A DNA stretch of 64,000 nt, taken from assembly GCF_057098645.1 (NCBI RefSeq), contig NZ_CM169472.1; one strand, written 5' to 3'. The notes below the pieces were generated by a model that was given only the letters and a program-made list of their open reading frames with translations, had not been told where the DNA came from and made no database searches. Below, piece by piece: positions 18,068 to 23,523 of this stretch. Every line of letters begins with the position of its first letter. Positions within the stretch are counted from its first letter, which is position 1. The translations under genes were made by a program, and so were the position numbers.

Positions 18068-18667
18068 ATGCGTAAACTTTATGCCGCCATTTTGTCCGCA
18101 GCCATTTGTCTGGCCGTATCCGGTGCGCCTGCATGGGCGTCTGAACATCAGTCCACGCTGAGCGCGGGGTATCTTCATGCCCGGACGAACGTTCCCGGCG
18201 GTGATGATCTGAACGGGATTAACGTGAAATACCGTTATGAGTTTACGGACACACTGGGGATGGTGACGTCGTTCAGCTATGCAGGAGACAAGAATCGCCA
18301 GATTACCCGTTACAGCGATACCCGCTGGCATGAAGATTCCATTCGTAACCGCTGGTTCAGCGTAATGGCGGGGCCGTCTGTGCGCGTGAATGAATGGTTC
18401 AGCGCGTATGCGATGGCGGGTGTGGCTTACAGCCGTGTGTCGACTTTCTCCGGGGATTATCTCCGCGTAACTGACAACAAGGGGAAAAAGCACGATGTGC
18501 TGACCGGAAGTGATGACGGTCGCCACAGCAACACGTCTCTGGCGTGGGGAGCTGGCGTGCAGTTTAACCCGACCGAATCCGTGGCCATTGATGTCGCTTA
18601 TGAAGGCTCCGGCAGTGGTGACTGGCGCACTGACGGTTTCATCGTGGGTGTCGGTTATAAATTCTGA
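18068..18667 (+). CDS. lom: Lom outer-membrane protein (Ail/PagC/Lom family) moron
   Basis: 199 aa with signal peptide. The C-terminus [25 protein letters not shown] matches lambda Lom. Own SD GAGAGG. Confidence 0.85.
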
Positions 18668-18725: not shown

Positions 18726-21700
18726 GTGAATATGGCAGTAAAGATTTCAGGTGTACTGAAAGACGGCACAGGAAAACCGGTACAGAACTGCACAATCCAG
18801 CTGAAAGCAAAACGTAACAGCACCACGGTGGTGGTGAACACGCTGGCCTCAGAAAATCCGGATGAAGCCGGGCGTTACAGCATGGACGTTGAGTACGGGC
18901 AGTACAGCGTTATTCTGTTGGTGGAGGGATTCCCGCCGTCACATGCCGGGACCATCACCGTGTATGAAGATTCCCGACCCGGTACGCTGAATGATTTTCT
19001 CGGTGCCATGACGGAGGATGATGCCCGTCCTGAGGCACTGCGCCGTTTTGAACTGATGGTGGAAGAGGTGGCGCGTAACGCGTCCGCGGTGGCACAGAAC
19101 ACGGCAGCCGCGAAGAAGTCAGCCAGCGATGCCGGCACATCAGCCCGTGAGGCGGCAACCCATGCGACTGATGCTGCAGGCTCAGCACGCGCAGCCAGCA
19201 CGTCAGCCGGACAGGCCGCGTCGTCGGCTCAGTCAGCGTCTTCCAGCGCAGGAACGGCATCAACAAAGGCCAGTGAAGCATCGAAAAGTGCTGCTGCTGC
19301 AGAGTCCTCAAAAAGCGCGGCGGCTACCAGTGCCGGTGCGGCGAAAACGTCAGAAACGAATGCTGCAGCGTCACAAAAATCTGCAGCCACTTCTGCATCC
19401 ACCGCGACCACGAAAGCGTCAGAAGCTGCCACCTCAGCCCGGGATGCAGCGGCCTCAAAAGAGGCAGCGAAATCATCAGAAACGAGCGCAGCCTCGAGCG
19501 CCAGTAATGCCGCTTCCTCGGCAACAGCGGCAGGAAATTCCGCGAAGGCGGCAAAAACGTCCGAGACGAACGCCAGGTCTTCTGAAACGGCAGCGGAACA
19601 GAGCGCCTCAGCTGCGGCAGACTCTGAGACAACAGCTGCATCATCGGCCCGTGAGGCGTCCATTAAGGCAGAGGAGGCAGCAGTCAGTGCCACCGCCGCC
19701 GGAAAATCGGCAGAAAGCGCCGCATCATCCGCTTCAACAGCCACAACGAAGGCTGGCGAAGCCACTGAACAGGCCAGCGCAGCAGCGAGGTCTGCTTCCG
19801 CAGCGAAGACATCCGAAACGAACGCGAAAGCGTCGGAAACCAGCGCAGAATCCTCAAAAACGGCTGCCGCATCGTCCGCCAGTTCGGCGGCGTCATCGGC
19901 ATCATCGGCGTCTGCTTCAAAAGATGAGGCGACCAGACAGGCGTCAGCAGCGAGGGGCAGCGCCACGACGGCATCCACGAAGGCGACAGAGGCTGCTGGC
20001 AGTGCGGCAGCGGCAGCACAGAGCAAAAGTACGGCAGAATCCGCAGCAACGCGCGCCGAGACAGCAGCAAAACGGGCAGAGGATATTGCATCCGCCGTGG
20101 CGCTTGAGGATGCGAGCACGACGAAAAAGGGGATAGTACAGCTCAGCAGTGCGACCAACAGCACTTCCGAGTCACTGGCGGCAACGCCAAAAGCCGTTAA
20201 GGCCGCGTATGACCTGGCTAACGGGAAATACACCGCACAGGATGCAACGACAGCACAGAAAGGGATAATCCAGCTAAGCAGCGCGACCAACAGCACGTCT
20301 GAAACGCTGGCGGCAACGCCAAAGGCAGTAAAAGCAGCCAATGACAATGCTGAGAAACGTCTGCAGAAAGATCAGAACGGTGCGGATATCCCTGGCAAAG
20401 ACACCTTTACGAAAAATATTGGTGCCTGCCGTGCCTTCGGTGGGTCAGTAAGCACAACAACAGGAAACTGGACGACTGCACAGTTTATCGAGTGGCTGGA
20501 TTCTCAGGGAGCATTTAACCATCCATACTGGATGTGCAAGGGTTCCTGGTCTTATGGCAATAATAAAATCATTACTGATACTGGCTGCGGTAATATTCAT
20601 CTCGCCGGAGCTGTCATTGAAGTAATGGGGATAAAGTCAGCGATGACGATCCGCATTACCACACCGACCACCTCCACTGGTGGTGGAACAACTAACGCCC
20701 AGTTTACCTATATTAATCACGGAACAGATTATTCACCTGGCTGGCGAAGGGACTATAACTCCAGAAATAAGCCAACGGCATCAGAGATCGGGGCGTTACC
20801 GTCAGGTGGAACAGCAGTATCATCAGTTAATCTGTCTTCAAAAGGTCGGGTAACCGCGCTGACAGACAATACGCAGGGGGCAACAGGTCTTGAGTTATAC
20901 GAGGTGTATAACAACGGATATCCAACAGCGTATGGAAATATCATTCACCTGAAAGGGATGACAGCCGTTGGCGAAGGTGAGTTACTCATCGGCTGGAGTG
21001 GTACAAGCGGTGCTCATGCTCCGGCATTTATTCGTTCACGACGGGATACGACCGACGCAAACTGGTCGCCGTGGGCGCAGCTTTACACCTCGGCTCATCC
21101 TCCTGCAGAGTTTTATCCAGTCGGTGCACCAATCCCGTGGCCATCAGATACCGTTCCGTCTGGTTATGCCCTGATGCAGGGGCAGACTTTTGACAAATCT
21201 GCTTACCCGAAACTTGCAGCCGCTTATCCGTCAGGCGTGATCCCTGATATGCGTGGCTGGACGATTAAGGGCAAGCCCGCCAGTGATCGAGCCGTATTGT
21301 CTCAGGAACAGGACGGCATTAAATCACACACCCACAGCGCCAGCGTATCCAGTACGGATTTGGGGACGAAAACCACATCGTCGTTTGATTACGGCACTAA
21401 ATCCACGAATAACACTGGTGCGCATACCCATAGTGTTAGCGGTACGGCTGCTTCAGCCGGTGCACATACCCATTCGATGACATTTGTTTCAGGTGGTTCC
21501 AGTGGTGCTCCGGGAAGTGGATCACCTGATTACTCTAAATACAGTGTTAACACTTCTTCTGCAGGCGCTCATACGCACTCTGTATCGGGTACTGCTGCAA
21601 GCGCAGGTGCACACGCACATACTGTCGGTATTGGTGCTCATACGCACTCCGTTGCGATTGGTTCACATGGACATACCATCACCGTTAACGCTGCTGGTAA

Positions 21701-21755
21701 CGCGGAAAACACCGTCAAAAACATCGCATTTAACTATATTGTGAGGCTTGCATAA
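18726..21755 (+). CDS. stf: Side tail fiber protein Stf (mosaic)
   Basis: 1009 aa. N-terminus [26 protein letters not shown] and the His-rich C-terminus ([55 protein letters not shown]) match lambda Stf. The middle carries an Ala/Ser-rich shaft and an extra Cys-containing domain. Confidence 0.85.
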
Positions 21756-22336
21756 TGGCATTCAGAATGAGTGAACAACCACGGACCATAAAAATTTATA
21801 ATCTGCTGGCCGGAACTAATGAATTTATTGGTGAAGGTGACGCATATATTCCGCCTCATACAGGTCTGCCTGTAAACAGTACCTATATTGCACCGCCAGA
21901 TATTCCGGCTGGTTTCGTGGCTGTTTTCAACAGTGATGAGTCATCGTGGCATCTCGTTGAAGATCATCGGGGTAAAACGGTTTATGACGTGGCTTCCGGC
22001 GACGCGTTATTTATTTCTGAACTCGGTCCGTTACCGGAAAATGTTACCTGGTTATCGCCGGAAGGGGAGTTTCAGAAGTGGAACGGCACAGCCTGGTTGA
22101 AGGATACGGAAGCAGAAAAACTGTTCCGGATCCGGGAGGCGGAAGAAACAAAAAACAACCTGATGCAGGTAGCCAGTGAGCATATTGCGCCGCTTCAGGA
22201 TGCTGCAGATCTGGAAATTGCAACGGAGGAAGAAATCTCGTTGCTGGAAGCATGGAAAAAGTATCGGGTATTGCTGAACCGTGTTGATACATCAACTGCA
22301 CCTGATATTGAGTGGCCAGCAGCACCTGTAGGATAA
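21755..22336 (+). CDS. tfa: Tail fiber assembly protein Tfa
   Basis: 193 aa, near-identical to lambda Tfa as I recall it ([39 protein letters not shown]). Confidence 0.9.
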
Positions 22337-22436
22337 AACAAAAACTTTATATAGAGTGCTCTTTTTACAATGTCAGATAAATGCTGGCCGAAATGTAATT
22401 CATTAGAAGTAAAAAACAGAATGGTTTGAGGGTGTG

Positions 22437-22480
22437 TCATCCCTTTATTATTAATAGTGAAAGGGATGACATTCTTTTTT
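22437..22480 (+). terminator. Rho-independent terminator downstream of tfa
   Basis: 11-bp stem GTCATCCCTTT / AAAGGGATGAC with a 12-nt loop, followed by ATTCTTTTTT. Confidence 0.7.
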
Positions 22481-22676
22481 AAGGAGTGTCTTTTTTATCG
22501 GAATATAAGTTGAGATAATGTTTAACTCGATTATAAAAATGTTTTTTCTTATCTCTTGGAATGCTTACTATTATATGCATTATGGGGCTTGTGTTTGCCG
22601 ATAATTTAGCTGATGCATACATTGAAGCAAGGAATTCAATATCAGTATTGTCAAAATTAAAACTTTCTCCATCCAT
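22479..22676 (-). CDS. Hypothetical 65-aa protein (orphan moron ORF)
   Basis: ORF in low-GC DNA with a plausible SD (AAGGA 8 nt before the ATG on the minus strand). No recognisable motif. Confidence 0.35.
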   Translation of the reverse strand: MDGESFNFDNTDIEFLASMYASAKLSANTSPIMHIIVSIPRDKKKHFYNRVKHYLNLYSDKKDTP

Positions 22677-22982
22677 TTCAATTCCTTATGTGTTTGGCTC
22701 GGTATACTGTATCCCATGAGATTTTACGTAAATTGTCATATCTAATATTGCAATTATAATTGTAGCTAATTATTTTAAATTAGGTGAAAGTTTATTGCGA
22801 ATGATTAACTCGGAAAAAAAGATTTCTCACGGTTAGTAAGTATATTAGGTCAGTATTCAGATATGAGTAGTGTTAACGACTAAATTTGCAATCACATATA
22901 GATTTTTGTTCTAATAAAGATGTTTTATTTGGCGATTCGTCAAGCATCTCCACTTAAGCAATCGTATATATTAAGAGTGCAA

Positions 22983-23078
22983 AAGAGAAGGGACAACGTT
23001 GCTCGCACTCTGGAATAAATATCGGGTATTGTTAAAGTGTGGTGATACATAATTGTACGGGATATTGAGTGGCCTGAA
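22983..23078 (+). pseudogene. Decayed second copy of the tfa 3' end
   Basis: CTGGAATAAATATCGGGTATTG...GATACAT...GATATTGAGTGGCC aligns to the tfa 3' end at about 22240-22330 (CTGGAAGCATGGAAAAAGTATCGGGTATTG...GATACATCA...GATATTGAGTGGCC), but with an in-frame stop and an indel. Confidence 0.5.
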
Positions 23079-23213
23079 GTCCCAGTCATTGAGTAATCTT
23101 TTCGTGATATGCCGCAGAAACGTTGTATGCAGGAACGTGCTGCGGCTAACTGGTGAACTTTCGATAGTGCGGGTATTGAATGATTTCCAGCCGTTACCGA
23201 TTTTACGTGCTAA

Positions 23214-23462
23214 TTAGTGAACAAACCACTCGTCAGCAGACTCCCAGGTATCTTTCAGAGTTTCCTGAACAAAAGTTTTAGCTGAATCTTTATCGGCAGT
23301 GCGCGTAACAGAAAGGCCATCGTTGCTGGTGGTTTTTACGATCACCTCTACATCGTCATAACGCTTACTGATGCGTCGAGTTAATTCTTCCTTTAACGCA
23401 TCCACAGCACCGTTTGGCATTTTAGTCATTTTCTCTTTGGCTATGCAGATCTCAATACGCAT
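23214..23462 (-). CDS. DinI-like SOS protein
   Basis: 82 aa. The N-terminal MRIE..IAK and C-terminal [16 protein letters not shown] match E. coli DinI (MRIEVTIAK ... ILQETWESADDWFV). SD GAGGG upstream on the minus strand. Confidence 0.85.
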
Positions 23463-23475
23463 AAAAATCCCTCTA

Positions 23476-23495
23476 CACTGTGTTTGTATACAGTA
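23476..23495. promoter_or_regulatory. LexA box 1 (SOS operator) upstream of the dinI-like gene
   Basis: CACTGTGTTTGTATACAGTA, which fits CTG-N10-CAG and the consensus TACTGTATATATATACAGTA. Lies 16 bp upstream of the dinI-like start. Confidence 0.7.
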
Positions 23496-23503
23496 TTATT
23501 TTT

Positions 23504-23523
23504 AACTGTATGAATAAACAGTG
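23504..23523. promoter_or_regulatory. LexA box 2 (SOS operator)
   Basis: AACTGTATGAATAAACAGTG, fits CTG-N10-CAG. Its centre is 28 bp from box 1. Confidence 0.65.

Follow-up and report, generated by a model that had tools for sequence, protein, structure and literature searches.

Does the AT-rich arm that separates a tail fibre assembly gene from a dinI-like gene at the end of a lambdoid prophage encode a protein, and if so, what might that protein do in the lysogen? The question is raised by an open reading frame of 65 codons plus stop, here called ORF65, which lies on the minus strand at positions 22479 to 22676 of the window (that is, the whole 64-kb stretch of DNA analysed, from contig NZ_CM169472.1 of assembly GCF_057098645.1) and whose product carries only the label "hypothetical protein" in RefSeq. 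The best explanation as a whole, to which we would give about an even chance, is that ORF65 is a coding prophage moron whose product is a remote relative of GlgS/ScoR.

To the left of ORF65, and convergent with it, lies an intact tail fibre assembly gene, tfa (plus strand, 21755 to 22336; PHROG 105, E 1e-96, and the RefSeq annotation of an identical locus), and to its right, on the same strand as ORF65, a dinI-like gene (23214 to 23462; PHROG 189, E 5.5e-31); the two profile matches bear out the flanking genes named in a preliminary description of this DNA. The dinI-like gene adjoins prfC, and upstream of it (23478 to 23521) lie two LexA-box matches (CTGT-N8-ACAG), the sole two within the 64-kb window. 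This neighbour is found only in the versions of the arm at the prfC site and the dusA site and is missing from the commonest context, at the ydfJ/Qin site, so that co-transcription of ORF65 with dinI was rejected as a general mechanism.

ORF65 and about 330 bp of non-coding DNA upstream of it make up an AT-rich cassette (22337 to 22996) that, by composition and genome counts, always moves as a unit. Its GC content is 0.285 to 0.34 (about 0.30) over approximately 22300 to 23000; tfa has about 0.48 to 0.51 and prfC 0.52 to 0.56. The AT-richness relative to the flanks that had been described for 22,340 to 23,210 is real, but the block ends near 23000, and 23000 to 23210 has a GC content of 0.45. 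Nor is the roughly 500 bp of apparently non-coding DNA featureless, as it holds the upstream region of ORF65 as well as a decayed piece from the 3′ end of an older tfa gene (22930 to 23090, plus strand), which repeats the corresponding end of the intact tfa in direct orientation at a spacing of about 758 nt. The repeat pairs 22239–22292 with 22997–23050 (78 %) and 22294–22329 with 23051–23086 (75 %), and in pairwise alignment the remnant (22997 to 23086) carries a frame-breaking 1-nt deletion; the 3′ end of lambda tfa together with its downstream DNA matches 22997 to 23148. We take it as demonstrated that the cassette arrived by insertion, leaving the decayed tfa 3′ fragment behind as a scar, and that it was later shuffled by recombination among prophages at the prfC, ydfJ/Qin, and dusA-adjacent sites.

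Beside the stop codon of ORF65 lies a hairpin (22435 to 22480) with a perfect 12-bp stem (arms of 12 nt at 22435–22446 and 22460–22471) and a 13-nt loop, whose folding z-scores are −5.0 on the plus and −4.4 on the minus strand. It had been described as a strong terminator at the 3′ end of the ORF; the hairpin is real, but it serves tfa on the plus strand and not ORF65. Because the stem is followed on the plus strand by the T-run ATTCTTTTTT, which overlaps the ORF65 stop codon, the structure is assigned as the intrinsic terminator of the convergent tfa/late transcript. On the minus strand, the hairpin is followed by ACACCCUCAAA, with no U-tract after the stem, and in the commonest (Qin-site) allele unrelated sequence stands in its place. 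Since the T-run is on the opposite strand and the hairpin is not conserved, it is not the terminator of ORF65, and a U-tract terminator was not found 3′ of the gene on its own strand.

The start of ORF65 is unambiguous, as an in-frame stop lies three codons upstream of its ATG. A Shine–Dalgarno sequence, AAGGAA (22682 to 22687, minus strand), stands 5 nt 5′ of the ATG and is invariant in the three known alleles, in agreement with the minus-strand ORF of 65 aa with a good ribosome-binding site that had been reported before. Farther upstream, a candidate sigma-70 promoter on the same strand (22759 to 22788; TTCACC at 22788–22783, an 18-nt spacer, and TACAAT at 22764–22759) was found in a consensus scan and is identified by its consensus alone, with 9 of 12 positions matching. 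Among the three alleles its −10 hexamer is invariant and its −35 hexamer nearly so, and the 5′ UTR predicted from it is about 75 nt. Judged from the sequence, ORF65 would most likely be expressed from this weak promoter of its own together with the strong ribosome-binding site, which would let the lysogen produce it without help from the converging late operon.

Among 5,426 complete E. coli genomes, the ORF segment is present in 590 and the upstream segment in 589 (approximately 11 %, about one in nine), and an assembly collection has 1,777 blocks with one and 18,196 with the other of two intact alleles of ORF65. The allele of the window also occurs in E. coli 210205630 (NZ_CP015912), and the common allele in ATCC 43896 (NZ_CP024278). 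Frameshifted or truncated versions occur only in very rare clusters (P0002, P0003, and P0004). A scan of IMG/VR returned three prophage contigs, all with the common allele and thus without added diversity, and by tblastn ORF65 had no match in 50,697 phage records and, among plasmids, only matches of E≥0.4 in Sinorhizobium. The position of the cassette is constant, namely between a tail-fibre module (of variable stf type) and the prophage end, in lambdoid prophages integrated at several sites (prfC, ydfJ/Qin, and dusA-adjacent). It is supported that ORF65 is a small accessory gene located where morons usually lie, in the equivalent of the b region of lambda, with tfa, the last late gene, on one side and the prophage–host junction on the other. 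The moron position next to tail fibre genes that had been proposed is confirmed by this placement at no fewer than three integration sites and by the GC content of about 0.30 versus about 0.5 in the flanks.

We consider it very probable, from the pattern of sequence differences, that ORF65 is a real translated gene. The cassette is known as three alleles, of which two are deep and the third is a mosaic of those two, so that the evolutionary test amounts essentially to one independent comparison. Between alleles differing at 41 of 198 nt, the start, the stop, and the length of 65 codons are identical, the differences are distributed over the codon positions as 12/9/20, and dS is 0.64 and dN 0.18 (omega, that is, dN/dS, 0.28). 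The frame was open and intact in all 30 loci inspected, and its conservation across related prophages means that the check proposed in the preliminary description, which would have counted loss of the frame in such prophages against a gene, does not refute it. When the same substitutions were placed at random in simulations, the ORF remained intact in 15–24 % of the trials, and no more than 20 amino-acid changes arose in just 0.3 % of those that kept it (P 0.003). The replacements are also more conservative than random in the frame of ORF65 (P 0.012).

A different reading of the same data is that ORF65 has no function and that the cassette is a decaying recombination scar of tail-fibre module swapping, in which the ORF stays open through chance and recent ancestry. 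In its favour, the cassette is a mosaic next to the decayed tfa fragment, no more than two deep alleles are known, and chance alone kept the ORF intact in 15–24 % of the simulated trials. PGAP furthermore leaves ORF65 unannotated in some genomes, and conservation is higher in the non-coding DNA upstream (about 87–92 %) than in ORF65 (about 80 %), a difference that would fit a mosaic history and would not be expected from simple purifying selection on ORF65 alone. The copies passed over by PGAP are, however, intact, with one synonymous change as their sole difference; Shine–Dalgarno sequence, start, and stop are exactly conserved; the amino-acid changes are both fewer and more conservative than random; and the predicted fold (see below) is confident and reproduced between alleles. 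We regard a mere scar as improbable and continue with ORF65 as a coding gene.

The AT-rich block, described earlier as holding one small minus-strand ORF, contains a further small ORF besides ORF65: an antisense frame of 52 aa with a hydrophobic N-terminus (22561 to 22719, plus strand), which none of the three alleles interrupts and whose omega is 0.26. In addition, a near-consensus promoter match on the plus strand lies at 22733 to 22760. The functional element might conceivably be this ORF or a small RNA. The omega signal is common to both frames because their third codon positions coincide, and the replacements in the antisense frame are no more conservative than random (P 0.75). The antisense ORF moreover lies immediately 3′ of the plus-strand terminator, has no usable Shine–Dalgarno sequence, and ends at different points in the alleles, with lengths of 52, 63, and 52 aa; the promoter match is broken in the other alleles by a 5-nt indel and by changes in the −10 and −35. 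As regards RNA, the Rfam scan gave, besides one chance-level snoRNA match (E 0.91), only IS009 (RF02111), which matches the intact tfa 3′ end at 22098 to 22296 (223.6 bits) and, weakly, the remnant at 22873 to 23054 (37.8 bits). What this family matches here is the coding part of tfa and its pseudogene counterpart; both lie outside ORF65 and lend no support to a small RNA in the cassette. In addition, the upstream region folds with z-scores of −0.3 and −0.8, neither strand being better than shuffles. On these Rfam results and z-scores, the small RNA that had been suspected in the AT-rich DNA was rejected. The evidence favours ORF65 over the antisense ORF, and a functional element of either kind other than ORF65 is barely credible.

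Searches of family libraries with ORF65 (Pfam, NCBIfam, PHROGs, and PADLOC) gave no match, Pfam not even at E≤10, its GlgS family PF08971 included, and NCBIfam, which contains GlgS models, none at E≤1. A word-indexed search of 5.8 billion proteins retrieved only the cluster of ORF65 itself and two damaged variants, and a full HMMER search of 1.84 billion representatives returned ORF65 and frameshift variants but no GlgS proteins; a repetitive 117-aa protein from the latter search was judged a spurious relative. Matches in a PDB sequence search were at chance level, a structure search of BFVD yielded nothing below E 0.5, and a literature search by the RefSeq and UniProt accessions of the protein found no mention of it. 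The earlier statement that the product has no recognisable motif holds for the standard libraries, but structure prediction and targeted profiles point to a remote relationship with GlgS/ScoR.

The product of ORF65 is predicted to be a soluble, cytoplasmic three-helix protein of 65 residues; it is net basic, and its C-terminal helix is basic. Its AlphaFold2 model (pLDDT 83, pTM 0.67, from only 3 sequences) has helices H10–25, H30–36, and H41–63, with the caveat that confident helices are possible for short helical sequences, homologous or not, and the AFDB model of a 69 %-identical allele superposes on it at TM 0.93. An interpretation of 'IMHIIVSIPRDKKK...' as a ribbon-helix-helix motif was dropped, as the model is helical throughout. 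After its own allele, the top matches of ORF65 in AFDB50 are GlgS or 'surface composition regulator' proteins (TM 0.6–0.75, 16–26 % identity) and theta subunits of DNA polymerase III, although the Foldseek E-values of the matches to GlgS are only 0.5–3.

This similarity extends to the sequence level. In hhalign, ORF65 and GlgS align over 45–48 ungapped columns with P 5.5e-4 to 6.3e-4, and none of 300 column shuffles reached the score (22.2, as compared to 9.5±2.0 with a maximum of 19.2); the reversed control gave P 0.45. When three GlgS-like proteins from mobile elements were added to the GlgS alignment, P was 1.4e-4 and the hhalign probability rose to 52 %, the probabilities across all tests being only 28–52 %. 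HMMER with filters off gave 11.8–16.6 bits (per-comparison E 3e-7 to 1e-5), as against at most 8.1 bits in 3,000 shuffles and less than 0 for reversed sequences. These targeted P-values are inflated by selection, as the link to GlgS was picked after a database-wide fold search with the weak E-values given above, and the similarity is accordingly significant as a targeted test and not database-wide. The helices of the GlgS AlphaFold2 model (H2–23, H30–34, and H39–65) coincide in their boundaries with those of the ORF65 model under the 2-residue offset of the alignment.

Residue by residue, the comparison was made over the GlgS motifs N-F-D-F-L-A-R-S-F-A-R-M and W-F-C-x-R-Y-x-x-Y-C. Among 22 invariant GlgS positions, the allele in the window retains F, L, A, A, F, R, and Y, and the common allele also G; the latter further shares with GlgS an E and a C, which are conserved there and not invariant. 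NFD in register, R16, S17, R20, M21, D29, N36, M37, W44, Y49, and Q55 are not kept. On these profile and model comparisons, ORF65 is probably a homologue, albeit highly diverged, within the GlgS superfamily.

As a known system to set beside ORF65, GlgS/ScoR (PF08971; E. coli GlgS, PDB 1rrz) is similar in being a single-domain protein of nearly the same length (66 aa vs. 65 aa), in its predicted architecture of a long N-terminal, a short middle, and a long C-terminal helix, and in the colinear, ungapped alignment, in which identities at GlgS-invariant positions fall on FLA...A in helix 1 and F..R...Y(C) in helix 3. Both are confined to Enterobacteriaceae, and close homologues of GlgS likewise travel as cargo beside integrases in mobile elements: GlgS-like genes, 56–63 % identical to E. 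coli GlgS, adjoin an integrase in IMG/VR elements that bear capsid genes. Searching sequenced phages by tblastn with such a mobile-element protein gave three matches only, one of which is an annotated Salmonella glgS and the other two of which, in unannotated records of 1.5–2.8 kb, are taken to be host DNA. In contrast to GlgS, which is acidic and whose gene is a chromosomal stationary-phase gene, ORF65 is basic and is encoded by prophage-borne DNA of about 30 % GC with a putative sigma-70 promoter of its own; it lies below every curated family threshold, identity is about 17–24 %, and most of the invariant GlgS residues are replaced.

ORF65 could also be a real small protein unrelated to GlgS, namely a three-helix orphan restricted to this lineage and serving another role, a serious alternative that we nonetheless consider unlikely. 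The evidence for coding applies to it equally, relatives appear in neither the family libraries nor the search of 1.84 billion proteins, the Foldseek E-values for GlgS are near 1, and the C-terminal helix is basic. Roles named for such an orphan include a DNA-binding, HTH-like autoregulator, an anti-defence or superinfection-exclusion factor, and a modulator of another host protein. The operator of an autoregulator could be the perfect 12-bp palindrome CAATTATAATTG (22751 to 22762), which overlaps the candidate −10 hexamer, and BFVD contains a weak match to a phage 'HTH domain protein'; the palindrome is, however, imperfect in the other two alleles (CAATGATAATTG), and the BFVD match has a TM of 0.46 and a probability of 0.51. 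PADLOC gave no matches, and the targeted comparisons with GlgS also speak against an unrelated orphan: every shuffled or reversed control scored lower, the register is consistent, and the helices begin and end at matching positions. A surface exclusion protein like Cor, Lom, or Bor was ruled out, as signal peptide, lipobox, and membrane segment are all absent from the sequence of the product.

The theta subunits among the fold matches suggest another relationship. P1 HOT is a phage-borne member of the theta family and thus a precedent for a phage protein of this kind. ORF65 might likewise bind and stabilise or modulate DnaQ (epsilon), as part of a damage or fidelity module with the LexA-controlled dinI-like gene. 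Theta (HolE, PF06440) and HOT are, like ORF65, small three-helix proteins of Enterobacterales, theta-family models make up about one third of the top 50 AFDB matches to ORF65 (TM about 0.6), and GlgS and theta are related at the profile level (hhalign P 1.4e-5 to 4.7e-5); the neighbouring dinI-like gene with its two LexA boxes would suit such a module. The family is represented in the PDB by entries 1se7 and 2ido. ORF65 itself, however, aligns with theta at an hhalign P of only 0.16 (55 of 300 shuffles being as good), scores −0.2 to 0.6 bits in HMMER against an alignment of 43 theta/HOT sequences, equal to reversed sequences, and has no match to PF06440 in Pfam. It also differs from theta and HOT, which have 76–83 aa, in lacking their conserved KVNVDLAA...PVIAE...LR.WF.ERL pattern, and the commonest context of the cassette has no dinI neighbour. 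A direct relationship of ORF65 to theta or HOT was rejected as not significant by hhalign and HMMER, and action in the manner of these proteins appears very improbable. The alignment of ORF65 with theta, although made independently, is in the register predicted by those of ORF65 with GlgS and of GlgS with theta. A descent of ORF65 as a diverged relative of GlgS/ScoR, and through GlgS, more remotely, of theta and P1 HOT, is supported, not proven.

In its setting, ORF65 resembles the morons of other lambdoid phages (lom and bor of lambda, cor of phi80 and N15, and effector loci 3′ of tail-fibre genes), which likewise follow the late operon and precede the attachment site, and it shares with them low GC content, promoter-like signals of its own, mosaic spread, and dispensability for the surrounding lytic functions. 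It differs from Lom, Bor, and Cor in not being a surface protein, and from lambdoid morons in lacking a terminator of its own. Our verdict is that ORF65 is a prophage moron of the ordinary kind, whose remote homology is of modest interest. Speculatively, its small product may, like GlgS, theta, and HOT, bind and modulate a host protein, and would then be neither an enzyme nor a DNA-binding regulator; the most likely outcome would be an altered surface composition, motility, or biofilm behaviour of the lysogen. In PMC7537768, where Rahimpour et al. (2013) are cited, deletion of glgS is described as leading to more flagella, type 1 fimbriae, swarming, and biofilm initiation. By analogy, a ScoR-like physiological effect of ORF65 is conceivable, if rather doubtful.

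Should the link to GlgS be wrong, ORF65 would be one more orphan moron, and what is gained would be two corrections, namely that the terminator belongs to tfa and that much of the 'non-coding' DNA is a tfa scar, which is also caught by the IS009 model. If ORF65 is expressed, a very common prophage arm of E. coli (about 11 % of complete genomes and many thousands of assemblies) would carry a host-modulating small protein that annotation pipelines all label "hypothetical", and the link to GlgS/ScoR offers concrete and cheap phenotypes, that is, motility, fimbriae, biofilm, and glycogen staining. A bolder reading, which we put forward only tentatively, is that ORF65 and the integrase-adjacent GlgS-like genes form a mobile, fast-evolving branch of one GlgS/ScoR–theta–HOT superfamily of tiny three-helix adaptors. 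Carried on prophages and satellites, this branch would, in about 10 % of E. coli, reprogramme a protein complex of the host. If so, it may shut down flagella and fimbriae and thereby alter motility, biofilm, and the receptors for other phages, or alternatively tune Pol III proofreading. The link to GlgS suggests that GlgS, theta, and HOT are one superfamily with members on mobile elements, which could help to find what GlgS binds, and the mobile branch, if real, would offer a handle on this molecular target.

ORF65, a frame of 65 codons on the minus strand (22479-22676), has an unambiguous ATG start because an in-frame stop lies three codons 5′ of it, and the Shine-Dalgarno sequence AAGGAA (22682-22687, minus strand) is placed 5 nt ahead of this ATG. 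The preliminary description, which had reported the frame, its good Shine-Dalgarno sequence and its position between tfa and a dinI-like gene, was largely right; its readings of a "terminator" and of "non-coding" DNA need correcting. On one side, the plus strand carries the genes for Lom (18068-18667), a 1,009-aa tail fibre (18726-21755) and tfa (21755-22336), and on the other side the DinI-family gene (23214-23462, minus strand) is followed by the host gene prfC. The AT-rich stretch is confirmed over about 22300-23000 (GC 0.285-0.34), but not over 23000-23200, which had been included and is at 0.45 (tfa, 0.48-0.51; prfC, 0.52-0.56). At the opposite extreme, 19000-20350 within the tail-fibre gene (GC 0.59-0.65) encodes a repetitive Ala/Ser/Thr-rich region and contains spurious long ORFs in other frames (335 aa, plus; 372 aa, minus). 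The only two matches to the LexA box CTGT-N8-ACAG in the entire 64-kb window stand in tandem directly upstream of the dinI-like gene (23478-23493 and 23506-23521), and SOS control of this gene is therefore probable.

The hairpin between tfa and ORF65, with perfect 12-nt arms (22435-22446 and 22460-22471) and folding z-scores of -5.0 and -4.4 against shuffles on either strand, is real, but it had been taken for a terminator at the 3′ end of ORF65. Its T-run follows only when the plus strand is read (ATTCTTTTTT); read on the strand of ORF65, the hairpin is followed by ACACCCUCAAA. It is therefore the terminator for the tfa/late transcript, which converges on ORF65, and not for ORF65 itself. In the commonest allele, unrelated sequence replaces the hairpin stretch, and identity over 22448-22497 is only 50%.

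The surrounding 500 bp or so had been regarded as apparently non-coding, which holds for the upstream region of ORF65 (22677-22930) but not for about 22930-23090, where the final ~95-160 nt of a tfa gene survive as a decayed copy. This remnant and the intact tfa 3′ end form direct repeats (75-78% identical, spacing about 758 nt), a 1-nt deletion breaks its frame, and 22997-23148 aligns to the tfa 3′ end of phage lambda and the DNA immediately downstream. The same lambda-aligned stretch contains a GC-rich hairpin (GCCGCAG...CTGCGGC, 23111-23146), downstream of the dinI-like gene, which has a U-tract on neither strand and modest folding z-scores (-2.7 and -1.7). An Rfam scan gave no real matches except IS009 (RF02111), listed there as "Gene", at the intact tfa 3′ end (22098-22296, 223.6 bits) and at the remnant (22873-23054, 37.8 bits); here the model picks up tfa coding sequence and not an independent RNA gene. 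As, in addition, neither strand of 22677-22930 folds any more stably than its shuffled versions (z -0.3 and -0.8), the suggested small RNA is unsupported. The upstream region contains a conserved promoter-like sequence on the strand of ORF65 (TTCACC-18-TACAAT). On the plus strand, a near-consensus promoter at 22733-22760 was dismissed, since in the other alleles a 5-nt indel and altered hexamers destroy the match. The candidate -10 elements of both promoters are overlapped by a palindrome of 12 bp (CAATTATAATTG, 22751-22762), which is perfect here and imperfect in the other two alleles (CAATGATAATTG).

ORF65 is very likely a real coding gene, as judged essentially from one deep comparison. Between the window allele and the allele at the Qin site (ydfJ), 41 of 198 nt differ, distributed 12/9/20 over the codon positions, while start, stop and length are unchanged (dS 0.64, dN 0.18, omega 0.28). 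When the same substitutions were placed at random, the frame stayed intact, start and stop included, in 15% of trials, and given an intact ORF only 0.3% had ≤20 amino-acid changes. The reading frame is thus conserved in related prophages, being intact in 30 of 30 loci examined; PGAP left it unannotated at two of these, which carry only a synonymous change. Frameshifted or truncated forms exist and are very rare, and beside the preserved frame a non-functional scar is improbable. Antisense to ORF65 and overlapping it is an ORF of 52 aa (22561-22719, plus strand) whose N-terminus is hydrophobic. It has the same low omega because the third codon positions of the two coincide, and conservation tests that ignore the frame can be misled by this. 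The amino-acid replacements in the antisense ORF are not significantly conservative (P 0.75; ORF65, P 0.012), it has a variable end (52, 63 and 52 aa), no usable ribosome-binding site, and lies directly downstream of a terminator on its own strand. That this ORF or a small RNA is the functional element appears extremely improbable.

Among 5,426 complete E. coli genomes, the ORF segment was found in 590 and the upstream non-coding segment in 589, and hence the two travel as one cassette. Three alleles occur: the window type at the prfC site (10 genomes), a 94-97% variant in two ETEC genomes, and an about 80% identical type at the ydfJ (Qin) site in about 575. Identity profiles show the ETEC allele to be a mosaic of the other two: compared with the loci L003 and L002, it resembles the window allele (96-100%) across the ORF and from 22941 onwards, whereas over 22698-22940 it has the indel and substitutions of the Qin type, which places recombination breakpoints inside the cassette. 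In a larger assembly collection, the two main protein sequences occur in 1,777 and 18,196 blocks, and a number of the records bear the label Salmonella enterica. The position is constant, with the tail-fibre module (of varying stf type) on one side and the prophage-host junction on the other, and the dinI-like gene is present in some cases and absent in others. In CP057104 (L008 2056-4198), the dinI-like gene and the ORF65-tfa arm adjoin a 365-aa integrase by dusA and not prfC; the arm is therefore either common to prophages with different attachment sites or located beside a second integrative element. The cassette was not found in 50,697 sequenced phage records, nor in plasmids. Its structure, position, conservation and translation signals are direct observations.

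As had been described, the product carries no recognisable motif: searches against Pfam, NCBIfam, PHROGs and PADLOC gave no match, nor did PDB sequences, and neither a word-indexed search of 5.8 billion proteins nor HMMER run in full against 1.84 billion representatives returned a known family. RefSeq names the three alleles (WP_000348577.1, WP_097307774.1, WP_001421370.1) only "hypothetical protein", and literature searches with ORF65 accessions gave no matches. Signal peptide and hydrophobic segment are absent, and a soluble three-helix fold is predicted. The AlphaFold2 model is confident (pLDDT 83, pTM 0.67, from an input of only three sequences), places helices at 10-25, 30-36 and 41-63, and agrees with the AFDB model of a 69%-identical allele (TM 0.93). 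Below this allele, two small enterobacterial families predominate among the Foldseek matches in AFDB50, albeit with weak E-values (0.5-3): GlgS ("surface composition regulator"; TM 0.6-0.75, identity 16-26%) and the theta subunit of DNA polymerase III (TM about 0.6).

Profile comparisons point to the former. Against an alignment of 15 GlgS sequences (the E. coli sequence was checked against PDB 1rrz), hhalign aligned 45-48 ungapped columns (ORF65 11-55/58 with GlgS 9-53/56) at P 5.5e-4 to 6.3e-4 and a probability of 28-30%. None of 300 column shuffles matched the score (22.2 vs 9.5 ± 2.0, maximum 19.2), and reversed ORF65 scored at chance. Identities fall on the GlgS-invariant F13, L14, A15, A19, F45, R48 and Y52; the common allele also matches invariant G25 as well as Glu and Cys residues that are conserved, not invariant, in GlgS. 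In the AlphaFold2 model of GlgS, the first helix ends at 23, the second spans 30-34 and the third starts at 39, so that with the 2-residue offset of the alignment the boundaries coincide with those of ORF65. An IMG/VR scan yielded three elements encoding 68-70-aa GlgS homologues (L031 2989-3195, L032 2974-3180, L033 2974-3186; 56-63% identical to E. coli GlgS), flanked by a major-head-protein gene and a small ORF on one side and an integrase on the other, a layout resembling a capsid-encoding satellite or prophage end; none of the sequenced phages in INPHARED has such a close homologue. With these sequences added, hhalign reached a probability of 52% (P 1.4e-4); identity to these three proteins alone is 24%. 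With HMMER filters off, the three alleles scored 11.8-16.6 bits against the GlgS model (per-comparison E 3e-7 to 1e-5), compared with a maximum of 8.1 bits in 3,000 shuffles and values below zero for reversed sequences. ORF65 is not a GlgS family member in the annotation sense, yet it is probably a highly diverged, if unproven, relative. That it is an unrelated orphan protein, possibly DNA-binding, would suit the empty family searches and seems doubtful beside these controls.

GlgS/ScoR itself aligns with theta and the theta-like HOT protein of phage P1 (45-49 columns, 27-29% identity, P 1.4e-5 to 4.7e-5, probability 68-80%) through the common pattern P-V...E(E)H(L)R.WF..R, which suggests a single superfamily; a full-text literature search found this link in no paper. 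Theta and HOT bind epsilon, the DnaQ proofreading subunit. The direct ORF65-theta alignment is weak and non-significant alone, although its register is exactly that predicted by chaining ORF65-GlgS and GlgS-theta, and the theta model scores ORF65 at about 0 bits. That ORF65 itself binds epsilon in the manner of theta and HOT, in partnership with dinI, is very improbable. Most likely, ORF65 would be expressed in the lysogen from its own candidate promoter and would act by binding a host protein, by analogy with theta/HOT and epsilon.

ORF65 is an ordinary prophage moron, already catalogued as hypothetical; what is new and testable is its remote GlgS-like character. According to PMC7537768, which cites Rahimpour et al. 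2013, loss of glgS by deletion raises the levels of flagella and type 1 fimbriae and enhances swarming and the initiation of biofilm, and a GlgS-like copy on a prophage could therefore conceivably, at the level of tentative speculation, change surface appendages, motility or biofilm. Equally speculatively, such an altered surface might make receptors more or less available to other phages.
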